Assembly (NCBI GenBank): GCA_029974275.1
Contig: JARKSN010000281.1
Span: 1 to 16,065, forward strand
DNA length: 16,065 nucleotides
Direction: 5' to 3'
DNA from: Candidatus Hydrogenedentota bacterium
Lineage (GTDB): Bacteria > Hydrogenedentota > Hydrogenedentia > Hydrogenedentales > SLHB01
Shown: positions 1-7,157 of the stretch, piece after piece
Numbering within the stretch: position 1 is the first letter of the stretch
How the letters are laid out: every line of letters begins with the position of its first letter
The notes under the pieces: model-generated
What the model was told of the DNA's origin: nothing
The model's database searches: none
What the model saw: the letters and a program-made list of their open reading frames with translations, nothing else
Position numbers and translations under genes: made by a program

Positions 1-662
1 GGGGGGGCAAGGCGTTCGTTGAAGATTTGGGTTCGATCGAAATCTTCCCAGACGGTGTAGCTGGCGTGCTCCACTTCCTCGAAGTAATCGGCGGTGAGGA
101 AGCCATGCTTTTTCTTGGCCGTCTCGATGATGCGGTCGATCTCGATCTGGCGTTCGGGCTTGAGGGAAAGCGTCAATTGCGCGTCTTTGTATTCGAAAAC
201 GCCTTGGAGGGGCGCGCCGGGATGCGCGATTTGCGTGATGAGTCCCTGTGCATAGGTGCTGCCCAGGGCTACTTGGATGCCGTCGGAGGCGCAGGCTTTT
301 GTTTTGTCGTTTCCGGTTTCAACGGAGACCCGCACGGCGCGCATTGGCGCCTTGAGGAGTTCTCGGGCGCGGGTTCCCATTTTGGCGCCGATGATGGTGT
401 AGATGCCGATGTGCTGGTGGATTTCATGCGTTAGCACAATGGCTGTCCATTCTGCTAATCCGTGCCGCTGCGCGACGCCCTTGCGCCATAACGCGGCGAC
501 GTCTTCCTGATATGCGTCGGGACTGGAAGGAAGGGTTTTCAGGGCAAGCATGGGGCGCTCGCCGGGAGGAGTAGCGTTGGCGTCGGCCTCGTCGGCCCAT
601 GCGGCCAGCGGCGTCCACAGGAAGCCGCTTAAAAGCGCGACGGTCATGATGCGTTTTTTCAT
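1..662 (-). CDS. Secreted FmdE-like (formylmethanofuran dehydrogenase subunit E family) metal-binding protein, 3'-partial
   Basis: Not in the ORF track because it has no stop before the window edge. Manual translation from ATG 662: MKKRIMTVALLSGFLWTPLAAWA-DEADANATPPGERPMLALKTLPSSPDAYQEDVAALWRKGVAQRHGLAEWTAIVLTHEIHQHIGIYTIIGAKMGTRARELLKAPMRAVRVSVETGNDKTKACASDGIQVALGSTYAQGLI...WEDFDRTQIFNERLAP. FmdE hallmarks HxH...G..MG and C..DG.Q...G.T...G. Sec-type signal peptide ending AWA. GGGAGAG RBS upstream. Confidence 0.85.
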   Translation of the reverse strand, partial: MKKRIMTVALLSGFLWTPLAAWADEADANATPPGERPMLALKTLPSSPDAYQEDVAALWRKGVAQRHGLAEWTAIVLTHEIHQHIGIYTIIGAKMGTRARELLKAPMRAVRVSVETGNDKTKACASDGIQVALGSTYAQGLITQIAHPGAPLQGVFEYKDAQLTLSLKPERQIEIDRIIETAKKKHGFLTADYFEEVEHASYTVWEDFDRTQIFNERLAP

Positions 663-677
663 TTTTCGCTCTCCCAA

Positions 678-1625
678 TTAATAGAGCCCGAAATGGCTTG
701 ATTCCAGCAGCATGCGCGTGTTGTTGACATAGGGGAATACGACTGGATAACGCAGGTAGGCCACGTGGCCGTCCATGTATAGCGTGTTGCCGCCGCCGGG
801 AACGTGATTAAAGGCCAAGCCTCCCGCGGTCGATCCCGATGTGCTTGGATTTCCAAAGGTGTCCCACATGACCGGGATCATGCTTTGCGCGTGAGCGCCT
901 TGCGCTGGATTGTTGATGTCGGTAATCAGGAAGCGTTCCACGCCTTCGCGAAGCCGCAAGACCTGCGCGCCGTCCGCTGTGCCCTTGGCTTCGTTTTTGG
1001 GTGTGAAAGATGGCCATGCCGATGTGTCGAAGGGCATGTCGCGGGTAAAATCCTTCACTTTCACCGGAGCGGATATTCCTAGGATGGCTGTCGTGTTCTG
1101 CGCGGGCGTCACCACCGTCTGTCCCCACACGCCGAAGTATTCGGGAATGGAAGTGGTCACGAATCCTTTGTAGAGGTAAGAGCGCCCCAGATGCCCGCAC
1201 AGGTAGTAGTCCAAGGAAATGGCGTCGCTGGCGTCGCTGGCGTCTTGTTCCCATTGATCAAAATCGCCGGTGTCCGGAAGCCGTCCGGCCACGTATATGC
1301 CCGGCCCGTCCATTCCGCTGTCCGAAGGGCACTGTGCGACGTTGAGGTCGCCCAGATAATCCGGGTATATGGCGGCGGCGTGGGGCGCGCTGAAGATGGT
1401 TGCGCCGTTCGCATTGGCATACGGGGCCAAGGGGGGGAAGGCGTCTCGGTTTTCGCCGCTGTAGACCTTGAACATGATCCCGAATTGCTTAAGGTTGTTC
1501 TGGCAACTGGATCGGCGCGCCGCTTCCCGGGCCCGGCCGAGCGCAGGAAGTAAAAGGGCCGCCAGAATCCCGATAATCGCAATGACAACCAGCAGTTCAA
1601 TCAGCGTGAATCCTTTTCGAAACAT
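678..1625 (-). CDS. DUF1559 family prepilin-type N-terminal cleavage/methylation protein (H-X9-DG-type C-terminal motif)
   Basis: [44 protein letters not shown]-terminus, central CPSD motif, C-terminal [17 protein letters not shown]. Start moved to ATG 1625 (AAGGA about 8 nt upstream); ATG 1634 is an alternative. Confidence 0.93.
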
Positions 1626-1653
1626 GGAAATCATCCTTCTGGGTTTCGGGCCC

Positions 1654-1682
1654 GGTATTACCAAACGTAAATTAGTAATATC
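1654..1682. promoter_or_regulatory. Palindromic operator candidate GGTATTAC-N13-GTAATATC (NikR-like geometry)
   Basis: Perfect arms TATTAC (1656-1661) and GTAATA (1675-1680) around a 13-nt AT-rich spacer in otherwise GC-rich DNA. One arm coincides with the predicted -10 of the DUF1559 promoter. The regulator assignment is inference. Confidence 0.6.
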
Positions 1683-1704
1683 ACGACGCGGCGCCGCATG
1701 TCAA
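1675..1704 (-). promoter_or_regulatory. Sigma70-type promoter for the DUF1559-FmdE unit
   Basis: Minus strand: TTGACA (1704-1699), 18-nt spacer ending in TGn, then TATTAC (1680-1675). Confidence 0.55.
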
Positions 1705-1808: not shown

Positions 1809-2786
1809 ATGCATCATTATTTGGTAACGGGTGGGGCGGGGTTTATCGGTTCGAATCTTGTTGCATATTTGACGGAACGGGGCGAGGCGGTCCGGGTGTT
1901 GGACAATTTTTCGACCGGCCGCCGCGAGAATCTCGCCGGGTTGGAGGGGAAGGTGGACATAGTCGAGGGGGATATATGTGTCCCGGACGACTGTGCACGC
2001 GCCGTGGCGGATGTGGATATCGTGCTGCATCAGGCGGCGTTGCCGTCGGTGCCCCGCTCGGTGGTTGATCCGTTGCGGACCCATGCGGCCAATGCCACGG
2101 GCACGCTCCAGTTGTTGATGGCGGCGCGCGCGGCGCGCGTCAAGCGGTTTGTGTATGCAGGGTCGAGCAGCGCCTACGGCAACCAGTCCGTGGCGTTCAA
2201 GTGTGAAGATCAGCGTCCGCGTCCGCTGTCGCCGTATGCGGCGTCAAAGCTTGCGGGCGAGCACTATGTGGCCGCGTTTGCCGAGTGCTACGGCATGGAG
2301 ACGGTTTCCTTGCGGTATTTCAACGTGTTTGGGCCGCGCCAGGATCCGGACTCGCCGTATAGCGCGGTGGTGCCGTTGTTCATTGTTGCCGCTTTGGAAG
2401 GGCGCCGGCCGACGATCCACGGAGATGGAGGGCAGTCGCGCGATTTTACGTATGTCGAGAACAATGTTTGGGCCAATGTTCTGGCCGCGACGGGCCGTTT
2501 CGACGCGCGCGGTCAAGTGATCAACGTCGCTTGTGGCGTATCGTACAATTTGCGCGATTTGGTCGAGGGGATTGGCGCGGCGCTGGGAAGGCGGATCGAT
2601 CCCGTGATGGCTCCGGCGCGCATCGGAGAAGTGCGTGATTCGCGCGCCGATATCTCCTGCGCCCGAGAAACGCTGGGCTACGAGGTGCGGGTGCCATTTC
2701 AGGAAGGGCTGCGACGCACGATCGAATGGTACGCCCGGCGGCATGGCGAGGGCGCGGGGCGCGAGTCCGTCGTCGTCCCGCTTTAG
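1809..2786 (+). CDS. NAD-dependent NDP-sugar epimerase/dehydratase, extended SDR (WbpP/UDP-GlcNAc 4-epimerase-like)
   Basis: YLVTGGAGFIGS Rossmann motif, HQAALPSVPRS, SSSAYG, catalytic YAASK, LRYFNVFGPRQDP, GDGGQSRDFTYV. Start moved to ATG 1809 (GGGGGTG RBS). Confidence 0.93.
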   Translation: MHHYLVTGGAGFIGSNLVAYLTERGEAVRVLDNFSTGRRENLAGLEGKVDIVEGDICVPDDCARAVADVDIVLHQAALPSVPRSVVDPLRTHAANATGTLQLLMAARAARVKRFVYAGSSSAYGNQSVAFKCEDQRPRPLSPYAASKLAGEHYVAAFAECYGMETVSLRYFNVFGPRQDPDSPYSAVVPLFIVAALEGRRPTIHGDGGQSRDFTYVENNVWANVLAATGRFDARGQVINVACGVSYNLRDLVEGIGAALGRRIDPVMAPARIGEVRDSRADISCARETLGYEVRVPFQEGLRRTIEWYARRHGEGAGRESVVVPL

Positions 2787-3772
2787 AGGGCCAGCAAAGT
2801 CGCGGCGAGCGGCGACACGATCAGCAGTCCTATGAGAAGAATCAGCGTGGGTTCGAGCAACGCCAGGGAGATGACGATCGTATGGGTCGCCTCGTTGCGG
2901 AGAAGCTTGGCGAAATGTATGAGGATATCGCCGGTTTCGCCTGCGGTTTCTCCGACAGCCAACATCGCCAGTGCGGTTCCGGAAAACAGCCCGCTGCGCG
3001 CCCCGGCCTCGGCCAGTCCACATCCCTGTTGCATAAAGGCGGCAGCCCTCTTGGCGCGGTCCTGCGTGACCGGATTTCCCGTGATTTCCGCTGCGGCGAG
3101 AACGCTTTTGGGCGCGTCCATGCCGGCGTTCATCAACAGGCCCATGGTGTGCAACTGCCGGGACATGGCCAGTTTGCGGCGTGTTGTCCCGTAGGGGAAC
3201 CAGCGGAGTTGCGTAGCCGCCTCGGCAAGACGCGCCACTGCGCCAATCCGCAGCAACGACCGTCCCCCCAGGAAGACGGCCAGCGGAAACACAAGGCTGG
3301 AGATGATGCCCGAGGCGAAACGCACGGTGAACCGCAGCAAGTCTTCGCCCGAAAATCCCGTCAATACAAGCCCTTTCACGTAGGGGATCAGGATAAAGGC
3401 GGCGAAACACACCGCTGCGGGATACGTGACGGCTTTGACGAGAAGATGGATCCACGCGAGTTTCTCATGGGCCTCTTTGGATAGCATCCGGATCGTTTCC
3501 AGGAGCGTTCCCGAGCTCTCCGCGCACGTGATCGCCGGCCCATAGTGGCGGGGGAAGCGTTTGCTCTCCGCGCGGATCATGTCGCCGAGCGTGTGGCCGC
3601 GTTGCAGTCCGTCCGCGATGAACTCGCACATCTCGCGGATAGGCTGGCGCGCCCGGCGCGCGATGACGCGAAAGCAGCGGACAAGCGGAATCCCCGCTTC
3701 GTACGCGATCTGCAACTCGTGCAGCAGCACGCAAAGCTGTTTTGTGGACAGGCGTTTCTGCAAAGGCAACAT
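2783..3772 (-). CDS. Type II secretion system F family / type IV pilus platform protein (GspF/PilC-like)
   Basis: Two T2SSF repeats (LHELQIAYEAGIPLV...GLQRGHTL...AESSGTL...TYP and RQLHTMGLLMNAGM...QQGCGLAEA...MLAVGETAGETG...LLEP) separated by hydrophobic helices. Start ATG 3772 with GAGGG RBS. Its stop overlaps the epimerase stop. Confidence 0.9.
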   Translation of the reverse strand: MLPLQKRLSTKQLCVLLHELQIAYEAGIPLVRCFRVIARRARQPIREMCEFIADGLQRGHTLGDMIRAESKRFPRHYGPAITCAESSGTLLETIRMLSKEAHEKLAWIHLLVKAVTYPAAVCFAAFILIPYVKGLVLTGFSGEDLLRFTVRFASGIISSLVFPLAVFLGGRSLLRIGAVARLAEAATQLRWFPYGTTRRKLAMSRQLHTMGLLMNAGMDAPKSVLAAAEITGNPVTQDRAKRAAAFMQQGCGLAEAGARSGLFSGTALAMLAVGETAGETGDILIHFAKLLRNEATHTIVISLALLEPTLILLIGLLIVSPLAATLLAL

Positions 3773-3864: not shown

Positions 3865-4383
3865 GTGCTGGAACCGCATTACGCGAATGTGCCGTTGGAC
3901 CAACTGCCTTGCTTGCCTCGGAATCCGGTGCACGTCGTGCTCGACAATTTGCGGAGCGCGTACAATGTCGGATCGATTTTTCGCACGTCCGACGCGGGCG
4001 CGGTGGAGCGCATTCATTTGTGCGGCATGTCGGCTCATCCGCCGCACAAGAAAATATCGAAGACTGCGCTGGGGGCGCAGGATTACGTGCCGTGGACGTA
4101 CTATGAGCGATCCTCGAGCGCCGTCGACGCGATCAAGGCGCAGGGCGTTTGCGTCGTGGCGGTTGAAGTCGTCGAGCACGCCGTGCCGCATGTTCATTTT
4201 GACTGGCCGAGGCCCGTGGCGATCGTGTTCGGCAATGAGGTGAATGGGGTGGGCGAAGCCGTGCTGAAGCGGTGCGATGCGGCGGTGCGCATTCCGATGA
4301 AGGGATTCAAGAATTCCATCAATGTCGCGACTGCCTTTGGCGTGGTGCTGTATGATATCTTGCGCCGGTGGGAGGCGATTTAG
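3865..4383 (+). CDS. SpoU/TrmH family RNA 2'-O-methyltransferase (SPOUT)
   Basis: VVLDNLRSAYNVGSIFRTSDA, KTALGA, AIVFGNEVNGV and IPMKGFKNSINVATA motifs. GTG start with AAAGGA upstream and an in-frame stop at 3856. Confidence 0.92.
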   Translation: MLEPHYANVPLDQLPCLPRNPVHVVLDNLRSAYNVGSIFRTSDAGAVERIHLCGMSAHPPHKKISKTALGAQDYVPWTYYERSSSAVDAIKAQGVCVVAVEVVEHAVPHVHFDWPRPVAIVFGNEVNGVGEAVLKRCDAAVRIPMKGFKNSINVATAFGVVLYDILRRWEAI

Positions 4384-4414
4384 GGCAACGGGATTGAGTG
4401 GAGGAGGAAGCCTG

Positions 4415-5992
4415 ATGCGACAGCGGGTTTATGTGTTTGCGGGAGCCATGATGGGCGTGTTGGCGTGCGCGTTCGCCGGCGCCGAGCCGGATGGGGGGTT
4501 GGGCGCGCTTACGCGGCAGCAGAGCTACGAGAGCAAGCGGGTCAGCAGTGTCAATCCGGATTTCAACAAGAACAACGACGCCCGTTCCATCGAGCCTGGA
4601 GCGACGTTGGTGTTGGGAGAGCTTGAAGGGCCCGGCGTGATTACGCATATCTGGTGCACCGTTGGCGCGAAGGATCCATTTTACGGGCGTTCGCTGGTTT
4701 TGCGCTTCTACTGGGACGGTGCGGAGAAGCCGAGCGTCGAGGCTCCGCTGGGCGATTTTTTTGCGGCGGGACACGGCATGTTCGCGGACGTCACGTCTGC
4801 GCCGGTCGTGGTGACCGCCGCCGGGCGATCGCGAAATTGCTTTTGGCGGATGCCGTTCCACAAGGCCGCAAAGGTGACCGTCACCAATGACTCGTCCACG
4901 CACAAGGTCGATTCGTTTTATTACTGTATAGATTGGCAGCGGCATGAATCGTTGCCCGAGGACGCCGCGTATTTTCATGCCCAATACCGGCAGGCCACGC
5001 CCGCGACGCCCGGCGATTACACGTTGCTCGAGACCCAGGGGCGCGGCCATTACGTGGGCACGGTCTATTCCGTGCAGCAGATGGAAATCGGGTGGTTTGG
5101 CGAAGGAGACGATCGCTTTTACATCGACGGCGAGGAGAAGCCGTCCTTGCAGGGAACCGGCACGGAAGACTATTTTTGCGACGCTTGGGGATTCCGTCAA
5201 TTCTGTACGCCGTATTACGGCGTGCCCATGTGGGAAGGATATTTCGCGGGCGATCGCGTGACGGCGTATCGATGGCACATTCAGGACCCAATCACGTTTC
5301 GAAAATCGTTGCGGGTCGATATCGAGCATAAGGGAAGCATCTTTACGCCGTTTGCGCAATTCCTCGGGCAGTTCATCGAGCGGAGCGATTGGATCAGTTC
5401 GGTCGCGTTTTGGTATCAGACGCCCGTTGCGTTTTCTCCGGGGATTCCGCCGCTTGCGGAGCGCCTGCCGCCGTATGCGATTCTGGCGCCGTCAAAACTG
5501 ACGGTGCGGGCCGTCCCGGATTCCGGCATCGAGAAGGGCGCGTCGGGCGTGGGATATCTTCCCATGAAGGCCGAAGCGCAGATCGAGTTCGATTTCGAGA
5601 CGCCGACGGACGGGACGTATCAAATCAATGCGCTGATGGGCTATGCGCTTATCGGCGGGGTGTATCAAGCGTTTCTCGATGGCAAGGCGCTTGGGGCGCC
5701 TATGGACTTTTTTGTGTCGGGGGAGGAGACGCGCTGGATCAATTTTGATTTGCATCGCCTGCATCCAGGCGTCCATACGCTGCGTTTCGTTTGCTGCGGC
5801 CTTTCCCCCAATGCGCGCACGCTGGCTCCCGAGGTATATGCTCTCGGCATAGACTGTCTTGCCTTGCTTCGCCTCGAAGACATGAAGGGGTACAACGAAG
5901 CGATGAATCAGGAGATACAGCGACAAACCGCGGCGCCGGCGGATTCTGCCACGGAAAATGGCGCGGCCCAAGCCGCATCTTCGACGGAGTGA
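4415..5992 (+). CDS. Secreted GH172 (DUF2961) glycoside hydrolase with extra C-terminal beta-sandwich/CBM-like domain
   Basis: GGAGGAGG RBS before ATG 4415. Signal peptide MRQRVYVFAGAMMGVLACAFAGA. GPGVITHIW, YWDG..KPSVEAPLGDFF, WFGEGD, GTGTEDYF, YRWHIQDPI and SSVAFWYQ motifs, then about 150 aa of extra domain. Confidence 0.92.
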   Translation: MRQRVYVFAGAMMGVLACAFAGAEPDGGLGALTRQQSYESKRVSSVNPDFNKNNDARSIEPGATLVLGELEGPGVITHIWCTVGAKDPFYGRSLVLRFYWDGAEKPSVEAPLGDFFAAGHGMFADVTSAPVVVTAAGRSRNCFWRMPFHKAAKVTVTNDSSTHKVDSFYYCIDWQRHESLPEDAAYFHAQYRQATPATPGDYTLLETQGRGHYVGTVYSVQQMEIGWFGEGDDRFYIDGEEKPSLQGTGTEDYFCDAWGFRQFCTPYYGVPMWEGYFAGDRVTAYRWHIQDPITFRKSLRVDIEHKGSIFTPFAQFLGQFIERSDWISSVAFWYQTPVAFSPGIPPLAERLPPYAILAPSKLTVRAVPDSGIEKGASGVGYLPMKAEAQIEFDFETPTDGTYQINALMGYALIGGVYQAFLDGKALGAPMDFFVSGEETRWINFDLHRLHPGVHTLRFVCCGLSPNARTLAPEVYALGIDCLALLRLEDMKGYNEAMNQEIQRQTAAPADSATENGAAQAASSTE

Positions 5993-6089
5993 AAATGCGC
6001 AAGTCATTTTGTTTTTGATCCCAACGCTCATGGCGCGCCCGGCGTGAAGGGACGCCATGCATGGGAAACGCAACATAGGAGATGGTGGC

Positions 6090-7157
6090 ATGTTTGACGG
6101 TCTGTACATGAACTTGGGCAATCTCTCGCGTCTGTCCAACGCGAAGAGCCGTTCGATCTCCCCCGAGAATTTTAACGGCGAGAAGGGCAAGGGCGGGATG
6201 TCGACGGATGGACCCGCGTGGAATTGCGCGCGCGACCTCGGCCAAGGCTGGAAAGTCTCGCCGTTTGTGAAAATCGCCGCAGGACAAACGTTCGAGCTTG
6301 CGAACGTCGACGGTCCCGGCGCGATCCAGCAAATCTGGATGACTCCGACGGGCAACTGGCGCTACAGCATCATCCGCATGTATTGGGACGGCGAAAAGAC
6401 CCCGAGCGTCGAGTGCCCCATCGGCGATTTCTTCGGCATGGGTTGGGGCGAGTATGCGCCGCTCAATTCGTTGGCAATCTGCGTCAACCCCGGTAGCGCC
6501 TTCAACTGCTACTGGACGATGCCTTTCCGCAAGCACTGCCGCATCACCTTCGAGAACATCGCGGACGACGAGATGGTGCTGTACTACCAGATCAACTACA
6601 CGCTTACCGAAGTCCCCGAAGACGCCGCGTATTTCCATGCGCAATGGCGTCGCACCAATCCGTTGCCGTACAAAGAAGTCTACACCATCGCCGACGGCAT
6701 CAAGGGCAAGGGCCATTTCGTCGGCGCCTACATGGCGTGGCAAGTCAACAACACCGGCTGGTGGGGCGAAGGCGAGATCAAGTTCTACATGGACGGTGAC
6801 CAGTGGCCCACCATCTGCGGCACCGGCACGGAGGACTACTTCTGCGGCTCGTACAACTTCGACCGCGGCGGCAAGTACACCGAATTTTCCACGCCGTACG
6901 CCGGATTGCACCAAGTGATCCGGCCCGACGGCACGTACCGCAGCCAACAGCGCTTCGGTCTGTACCGCTGGCACATCATGGACCCCGTCCGCTTTGAACA
7001 AGACCTCAAGGTCACCATCCAAGCCCTCGGCTGGCGCAGTGGCGGTCGCTACCTGCCCAACCAAGACGACATCGCCTCCGTCGCCTACTGGTACCAAAGC
7101 GAACCCCACGGCAAATTCCCGGTGTTGCCGGAACGCGATTATCTGGAAGTGATTTAG
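6090..7157 (+). CDS. Cytoplasmic GH172 (DUF2961) glycoside hydrolase (alpha-D-arabinofuranosidase/alpha-D-fructofuranosidase-like)
   Basis: AGGAG RBS before ATG 6090. SRSISPENFNGEKGKGG, LGQGWKVSP, GPGAIQQIWMT, WWGEGE, GTGTEDYF, YRWHIMDP and ASVAYWYQ motifs. No signal peptide. Confidence 0.94.
   Translation: MFDGLYMNLGNLSRLSNAKSRSISPENFNGEKGKGGMSTDGPAWNCARDLGQGWKVSPFVKIAAGQTFELANVDGPGAIQQIWMTPTGNWRYSIIRMYWDGEKTPSVECPIGDFFGMGWGEYAPLNSLAICVNPGSAFNCYWTMPFRKHCRITFENIADDEMVLYYQINYTLTEVPEDAAYFHAQWRRTNPLPYKEVYTIADGIKGKGHFVGAYMAWQVNNTGWWGEGEIKFYMDGDQWPTICGTGTEDYFCGSYNFDRGGKYTEFSTPYAGLHQVIRPDGTYRSQQRFGLYRWHIMDPVRFEQDLKVTIQALGWRSGGRYLPNQDDIASVAYWYQSEPHGKFPVLPERDYLEVI

Follow-up and report, generated by a model that had tools for sequence, protein, structure and literature searches.

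In the Candidatus Hydrogenedentota bacterium represented by assembly GCA_029974275.1, a DUF1559 prepilin-type gene and a gene for a predicted exported FmdE-fold protein lie in tandem at one end of contig JARKSN010000281.1. This whole contig, 16,065 nucleotides long (G000:C243 in our genome set), was analyzed and is referred to here as the window. A palindrome, or box, precedes the two genes and is very probably an operator of the regulator NikR; on comparison of related genomes, the pair is very probably repressed by NikR. The reading preferred here, to which we give a probability of about 0.6, is that the pair belongs to a nickel-starvation module in which the pilin-like protein would collect nickel, free or in a complex, and FmdE would be a periplasmic nickel carrier for an energy-coupling factor (ECF) importer. 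The features of the pair are listed with their basis in brackets.

3..662, minus strand: gene for an FmdE-fold protein, predicted to be exported (ATG at 662; PF02663; 220 amino acids, no stop before the contig end)
663..677, minus strand: spacer from the pilin gene to fmdE, exactly 15 nucleotides (nt), containing GGAG (sequence)
678..1625, minus strand: DUF1559/prepilin-type gene, 315 amino acids (stop at 678-680, likeliest start ATG 1625)
1634..1640, minus strand: likely ribosome-binding site AGAAGGA for the pilin ATG at 1625 (sequence)
1655..1681, no strand assigned: likely NikR operator, GTATTAC-N13-GTAATAT as read on the plus strand (matrix, nikR co-occurrence, nikM targets)
1675..1683, minus strand: candidate -10 element, either TG-A-TATTAC with an 18-nt spacer or GATATT with a 16-nt spacer (sequence)
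1699..1704, minus strand: -35 hexamer TTGACA of a likely sigma-70 promoter (sequence; orthologous sites)

An earlier, sequence-only reading of this DNA had described a DUF1559 prepilin gene followed 15 bp later on the same strand by an FmdE-like gene with a signal peptide, and the open reading frames and Pfam matches agree with that description. The 315-residue pilin product agrees in length with a database protein; ATG 1634 is an alternative start, from which His314 below is counted. The contig edge at base 1 falls inside fmdE, and no second contig of the genome overlaps that end, which rules out the leftward extension that the sequence-only reading had proposed. FmdE homologues terminate near residue 220, where the reading frame in the window is cut by the contig end.

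The palindrome that the sequence-only reading gave as TATTAC-N13-GTAATA was located at 1656-1680 and belongs to a family with the consensus GTATTAC-N13/14-GTAATAC. The exact TATTAC-N13-GTAATA string occurs once in the 4.38-Mb genome. A matrix trained on 14 relatives, the window site being left out, ranked this site first in the genome at 30.6 bits; the next site scored 17.0, and shuffled maxima lay at 14-20. The sole further site with no more than one mismatch stands 22 nt ahead of a nikM-cbiQ-cbiO operon on contig C186, and the genome also holds seven N14 sites with two mismatches. The box scores of the nine other DUF1559-type genes of the genome are -3 bits or lower. Weaker matrix matches on contigs C106, C57, C248, and C22 were rejected, their scores lying inside the shuffled range.

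The distribution of the box was followed in a set of 135 Hydrogenedentota genomes. A box was called at up to three mismatches, with N13 or N14, within 200 nt upstream of the pilin gene; a matrix with the 13-bp spacer only misses N14 sites, and the counts were therefore made with both spacers. Among 124 loci entered, 104 were used, and 20 were dropped for lack of a readable full-length pilin with an H-[FY]-G tail. The pilins fall into clades A (n = 37, with G042 assigned by its tail), B (n = 36, including the window gene; weak support of 0.77), and C (n = 31). In genomes that bear nikR, the box precedes 59 of the 63 pilin genes of clades A and B. Where nikR was not found, it precedes 2 of 10, and the two genomes concerned are 63% and 85% complete. 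None of the 31 pilin genes of the sister clade C has a box ahead of it. The 61 sites divide into 40 with N13 and 21 with N14, and the threshold was reached by 4 of 1500 random 200-bp windows. A scan for riboswitches and other RNA elements upstream of 20 box-less loci returned a tRNA only.

A search for nikR in this genome, which the sequence-only reading had suggested, finds it on contig C59, where the product scores 151.6 bits against the NCBIfam model NF003381 (cut-off 105) and has RHH_1 and NikR_C domains. The protein holds the string YDHH...HVHLDHHRC, in which the His3Cys nickel ligands lie by comparison with the ligand positions of Escherichia coli NikR. At 6 of 25 pilin-fmdE loci nikR adjoins the pilin gene directly. 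In two genomes, G061 and G062, both elements deviate: the box reads GTGCTAC-N13-GTGCTAC, and the recognition strand of NikR is RFGIS, where the window genome has RLSFS. An Arg-Gly-Ser NikR strand accompanies GTG-type sites in Geobacter. The variant boxes, at L096:90-117 and L083:3214-3240, occur in the two most distant genomes and form, with the variant strand, a natural specificity pair. Known NikR sites read GTGTTAC-N13/14-GTAACAC and GTATGAT-N13/14-ATCATAC (PMC545781), and the geometry of the palindrome, an inverted repeat of 27-28 bp with 7-bp arms and N13/14, is that of the sites described there. NikR responds to nickel only (PMC11672702).

The box also stands before genes that the consensus had not been drawn from. 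All 14 close nikM genes examined have it (15 were found, the start of one not being located), six more fmdE genomes carry it ahead of (nikK)-nikM operons, and four of the five ZnuA-like genes placed apart from a pilin gene have a box of their own. Since the consensus came from pilin-upstream sites and these nikM and separate ZnuA-like sites lie outside the training set, they are the stronger evidence. The sequence-only reading had proposed metal control with nickel as a queried candidate; as far as regulation goes, this can be sharpened to nickel because the box tracks the presence of nikR and precedes nikM-type importers. The palindrome is conserved in the phylum, as that reading had asked to see tested.

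The same reading had placed a single promoter ahead of the pair, with an extended -10 element in one palindrome arm. The TTGACA hexamer is there, and both candidate versions of the -10 element overlap the upstream arm; the version differs, as the promoter scan pairs TTGACA with GATATT at 16 nt. The TGn-TATTAC version at 18 nt is a weak match to TATAAT, its final T being missing, and the corresponding arm reads TATTAT in 24 of the 61 orthologous sites. By itself the scan performs at chance level, with 2 promoters found against 1.5 expected; a TTG-led hexamer lies 13-17 nt ahead of the box in 47 of the 61 orthologous sites.

The association of the two genes is conserved, as the sequence-only reading had asked. 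An FmdE alignment search gave 27 matches in 26 of the 135 genomes, and 25 of the 27 have an orthologous pilin gene directly upstream on the same strand, one of these pilins being frameshifted (G042) and one cut by a contig end (G121). One exception, in G066, is a C-terminal fmdE fragment. In the other, G041, a DUF4198 gene lies directly before a degenerate fmdE and the pilin farther upstream is a paralogue; the DUF4198 gene is presumably NikK-like. In G013 a remnant of fmdE follows the pilin gene, and a boxed ZnuA-like gene lies elsewhere. The loci of the frameshifted pilin, the fmdE remnant, and the fmdE fragment are L025:6960-7930, L035:6347-6600, and L233. Upstream DNA could be read at 24 pairs, of which 21 have the box, one the variant, and two neither. 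The genes that flank the pair vary by locus, and the downstream gene, where visible in wide loci, is mostly on the opposite strand; pilin and fmdE therefore form a two-gene unit. The FmdE tree is at odds with pilin clades A and B, its deep branches being unsupported. In four genomes (L023, L024, L032, L085) the pair has a further DUF1559 gene as its neighbour, an unrelated paralogue of the pilin gene.

The FmdE reading frame matches PF02663 with 38.8 bits (cut-off 22.9). Its N-terminus is of Sec type by inspection (MKKR, a hydrophobic core, and AWA), and of 41 full-length homologues, 38 begin with a hydrophobic stretch, read by eye as a signal peptide. Many homologues have extra histidines after the signal peptide, some as many as 8-11. 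The predicted structure (pLDDT 89.7; Foldseek E 2.6e-8) has the fold of the solved family members, with Z scores of 15.1 to 2GVI, 14.3 to 2GLZ, and 11.2 to 3D00, the next match reaching 5.5; the 2GVI match has an rmsd of 2.7 over 148 residues, and identity to the solved members is 14-17%. A sequence search of the PDB misses these structures (best E 0.22; 2GVI 0.45) and the fold search finds them. The motif E80-x-H82-x-H84-x-G86 ... C124-x-x-D127 is present in 44 of 45 close homologues, with Glu80 invariant among them. The solved site consists of His-x-His-x-Cys and a distal Cys, zinc and nickel are bound in 2GLZ, and most fmdE genes lie near metal transporters (PMC2954224). His82, His84, and Cys124 retain ligands of that site, as mapped by spacing and alignment. 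The nearest longer relatives are fusions of nucleoside hydrolase with FmdE.

The sequence-only reading had suggested a search for metal transporters near the pair. In this genome no transporter gene lies beside it, and the operon as read, up to the contig end within fmdE, holds no membrane permease or ATPase; a boxed nikM-type importer is encoded elsewhere in the genome. This operon, nikM-cbiQ-cbiO at G000:C186:10235-12745 (L065), has the box GTATTAC-N13-GTATTAC 22 nt before its ATG, and its NikM begins with MHIPDG, which we take to be the N-terminus of nickel-type NikM. A boxed nikM-type ECF operon is present in 14 of the 26 fmdE genomes; a nikM protein query misses divergent nikM genes, and these were found through the box. 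As alternative importers, NiCoT and HupE/UreJ were each found in one of five genomes. For TonB receptors, which the sequence-only reading had also named, a domain search finds none in this genome, nor in 92 of the 135 genomes of the phylum, the remainder having 1-4 each.

In the absence of fmdE, a boxed pilin gene most often leads into a ZnuA-like ATP-binding cassette (ABC) importer; in one case an ECF-type gene follows it, and some copies have no partner. Of the 135 genomes, 55 have a ZnuA-like protein and 26 have fmdE; a single genome has both, against 10.6 expected, an exclusion whose significance is inflated by kinship among the genomes. The sole genome with both, G068, is 7% contaminated and has a stop inside the match concerned. 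On the pilin tree (67 rows) the FmdE and ZnuA states switch nine times, a number that weak branches inflate. Because the slot behind the pilin gene holds either FmdE or a ZnuA-like importer, FmdE may be the ECF importer's counterpart of the ABC importer's binding protein. The ZnuA-like importers behind the pilin gene are probably nickel importers with a zinc family name. ZnuA-like proteins encoded behind pilin and box carry a CP[GS][HQ][FY]D motif (L097, L098, L101, L105-L122, L257-L285).

Candidate users of the nickel are present in the genome. A CO dehydrogenase (CODH) scoring above its cut-off is encoded beside acetyl-CoA synthase and two CooC-like genes, recognized by eye, at G000:C310:21670-34351, and the genome also has a LarC-type insertase and two LarA-like proteins that score below cut-off. 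Its likely nickel users are the Ni-CO dehydrogenase/acetyl-CoA synthase cluster and the nickel-pincer (Lar) enzymes. Searches for NiFe hydrogenase and HypA found neither here, and a hydrogenase-like subunit on C75 was set aside because it passed no cut-off. In the phylum, the LarC-type nickel insertase occurs in 127 of 135 genomes, close CODH in 14, and NiFe hydrogenase in 13.

The pilin-like protein matches the N_methyl models PF07963 (33.3 bits, cut-off 21.2) and TIGR02532 (34.9, cut-off 16.3), and SBP_bac_10/DUF1559 (PF07596) with 35.8 bits (cut-off 23.3), the match covering no more than profile positions 2-35 of 268. The H-X9-DG model TIGR04294 gives 18.9 against a cut-off of 19, with His277, Asp288, and Gly289 invariant. 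By motif the genome has ten DUF1559-type genes, and this one belongs to a distinct subfamily, mostly with one boxed copy per genome, that is marked by the C-terminal H-[FY]-G tail; the tail is found in 0 of 14 paralogues, and His314 is present in 120 of 120 close homologues. His314 and Glu311, at the C-terminus, are invariant and specific to the subfamily. A structural model from a 15-row alignment reached a pLDDT of 43.7, and solved structures match its N-terminal pilin helix alone. A gene of the prepilin-peptidase family is present in the genome. In the proposed module the pilin may bind nickel or a nickel complex. The clade C loci (L162-L197, L208, L216, L217) have the same C-terminal His and no fixed neighbour; no Rfam element was found in those scanned and no common upstream motif was seen by eye. 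Among the residues listed, the single clear difference between clade C and the boxed clades is Asn74 versus Ser. Clade C is common in a family without nikR (0 of 15 genomes).

Under the nickel-starvation reading, a shortage of nickel would lift NikR repression from the boxes of both pilin-fmdE and nikM. Within the cell envelope, the pilin-like protein would then trap the metal, free or complexed, and FmdE, predicted to be exported, would carry nickel through the periplasm and hand it to the separately encoded NikM-type ECF importer, which stands under the same palindrome. Binding by NikR, nickel-dependent repression, transcription of the two genes as one unit, export, metal binding, and hand-over are all steps that we infer.

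Several observations weigh against this reading. The pilin-upstream sites trained the consensus, so the count of 59 in 63 is partly circular, the relatives are non-independent, and the losses of box and nikR amount to only about three events. Two genomes, G057 (95% complete) and G117 (80%), retain pilin-fmdE with neither nikR nor box. By the queries used, 12 of the 26 fmdE genomes lack a boxed nikM-type importer, and the search for divergent nikM genes left out the ZnuA genomes. No obvious metal motif was seen in the pilin, and clade C keeps nearly all of its conserved His, Asp, and Glu residues with no box. The sequence-only reading had FmdE binding metal through His and Cys; the two His and one Cys stand, and one of the four ligands is lost, since the second Cys of 2GLZ and 2GVI is Gly86 in 45 of 45 close homologues. 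The metal site of this FmdE therefore differs from the solved one: the full His-x-His-x-Cys...Cys arrangement is absent from the window protein, and 3D00 is also without two ligands. Finally, the seven nucleoside-hydrolase-FmdE fusion loci seen have apbE on one side and an nqr-like operon on the other, and none shows a clear box.

That altered site invites a different account of FmdE under the same NikR control, as a periplasmic enzyme or trap that frees nickel from an organic complex such as a metallophore or the nickel-pincer cofactor or its debris. With three of the four solved ligands left, the metal site would be an open one; an unknown ligand in 2GVI is bonded to the Cys that matches Cys124 (PMC2954224), a nucleoside-hydrolase-like domain forms part of the closest longer relatives as a fusion, and the LarC-type insertase represents the one nickel pathway that is almost phylum-wide. 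We nevertheless regard this account as unlikely, as alternation with a solute-binding protein is not expected of an enzyme and the His-rich N-terminal stretches of several homologues suit a carrier. The pilin, for its part, might never contact nickel even if its operon is repressed by NikR, serving as an anchor or fibre subunit that places the FmdE or ZnuA-like partner, or as a nickel-regulated copy with a general envelope function. Such a role would fit clade C, which occurs in many of the same genomes and keeps the conserved residues without box or fixed neighbour, and would fit the signal-peptide genes that often neighbour DUF1559 genes in Planctomycetes (PMC8567305). It sits poorly with the constancy of the pilin as first gene while its partners vary, with the solitary state of some boxed copies, and with the invariant, subfamily-specific His314 and Glu311, and we hold it to be distinctly improbable.

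An altogether different metal, with the palindrome read by another regulator or one responsive to cobalt or zinc, is suggested by the family names of the importers (CbiM for cobalt, ZnuA for zinc) and by the mostly zinc-bound state of solved FmdE proteins (PMC2954224). The box, however, tracks the presence of nikR, adjoins it in places, and covaries with the NikR recognition strand; its geometry is that of NikR sites and unlike the Fur, Zur, and ModE motifs listed in PMC545781, and NikR is a nickel-only sensor (PMC11672702). This possibility is accordingly very remote in our estimate, and the nickel-starvation module remains the reading we prefer.

Relatives do not keep the epimerase, PilC-like, or glycosyltransferase genes of the window beside the pilin-fmdE pair. 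At 1809-3772 a divergent NAD-dependent epimerase gene with its own promoter-like site (1744-1772) is followed by a convergent PilC/GspF-type gene with two T2SSF domains. Two DUF2961 genes stand in tandem at 4322-7157. The segment 8024-15077, likely a surface-polysaccharide locus, has several glycosyltransferase-like genes along with genes of an ABC-type exporter; the ABC ATPase was recognized by Pfam and the others by eye.

The closest regulatory parallel is provided by the Nik(MN)QO and NikKMLQO systems of delta-proteobacteria, in which an inverted repeat of 27-28 bp with N13/14 lies over the promoter (Rodionov 2004, PMC545781); the repeat here has that length and spacer and overlaps the candidate -10 element, and the same box is found on nikM-type operons. 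These systems differ from the window pair in their half-sites, GTGTTAC or GTATGAT in place of GTATTAC, and the window operon has no membrane transporter. NikKMLQO includes extra periplasmic proteins, NikK and NikL, proposed as nickel binders (PMC545781), to which the DUF4198 gene before fmdE in G041 may be compared. No prepilin-type protein or exported FmdE was found in NikR-controlled ECF regulons in the available text of the literature searched, and no literature was found that joins DUF1559 or FmdE to NikR, supplements and most subscription papers being outside the search.

Like the solved members 2GLZ, 2GVI, and 3D00, the window FmdE has the alpha+beta core fold, His-x-His, and a distal Cys; unlike them, it has a predicted signal peptide, no zinc finger, Gly at the Cys19/20 position, and the invariant Glu80, and it is linked to a pilin instead of to fmd genes. 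The nucleoside-hydrolase-FmdE fusions (PF01156 + PF02663, mostly in Bacteroidota) share 33-38% local identity, a hydrophobic N-terminus, and the motifs E-x-H-x-H-x-G and C-x-x-D-G with the window FmdE, which in contrast stands alone; the seven fusion loci have neither a pilin gene nor a clear box. The pilin resembles the DUF1559/PF07596 proteins of Planctomycetes-like lineages in its prepilin cleavage motif, DUF1559 start, probable H-X9-DG region, and membership of a multi-copy family, and differs in the H-[FY]-G tail, the mostly single boxed copy, and the defined regulator. At least 41 DUF1559 copies occur per Planctomycetales genome, with no known ligand in the available text (PMC8567305), and what the accessible literature reports on DUF1559 proteins is limited to stress regulation and fractionation data.

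FmdE has had structures since 2010 and still lacks a function. The present unit, two genes tied to a defined regulator and a defined metal, opens the questions surrounding both families to test. NikR over an uptake operon is textbook regulatory logic; the apparently new part is the pairing of pilin with FmdE and the exchange of FmdE for ZnuA. ECF nickel importers are not known to have a classical binding protein, and the exchange suggests that FmdE fills this role for them.

A wider and more tentative idea, which we consider unlikely, is that in these bacteria a pilus or type II secretion-like machine takes the place of TonB-dependent receptors, with DUF1559 pilins as its exchangeable substrate receptors; this paralogue would be the nickel receptor, drawing nickel or a nickel complex across the outer membrane and passing it to FmdE. 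A type II secretion-like cluster with pseudopilin, secretin-like, and ATPase-like genes, identified by eye, lies at G000:C57:396-17118, and it could assemble DUF1559 pilins. If the pilin does bind cargo, it would belong to an uptake route in place of TonB receptors that is undescribed for outer-membrane nutrients, and if the receptor idea is true, ECF importers would be served by periplasmic metal carriers of a new class, represented by FmdE.

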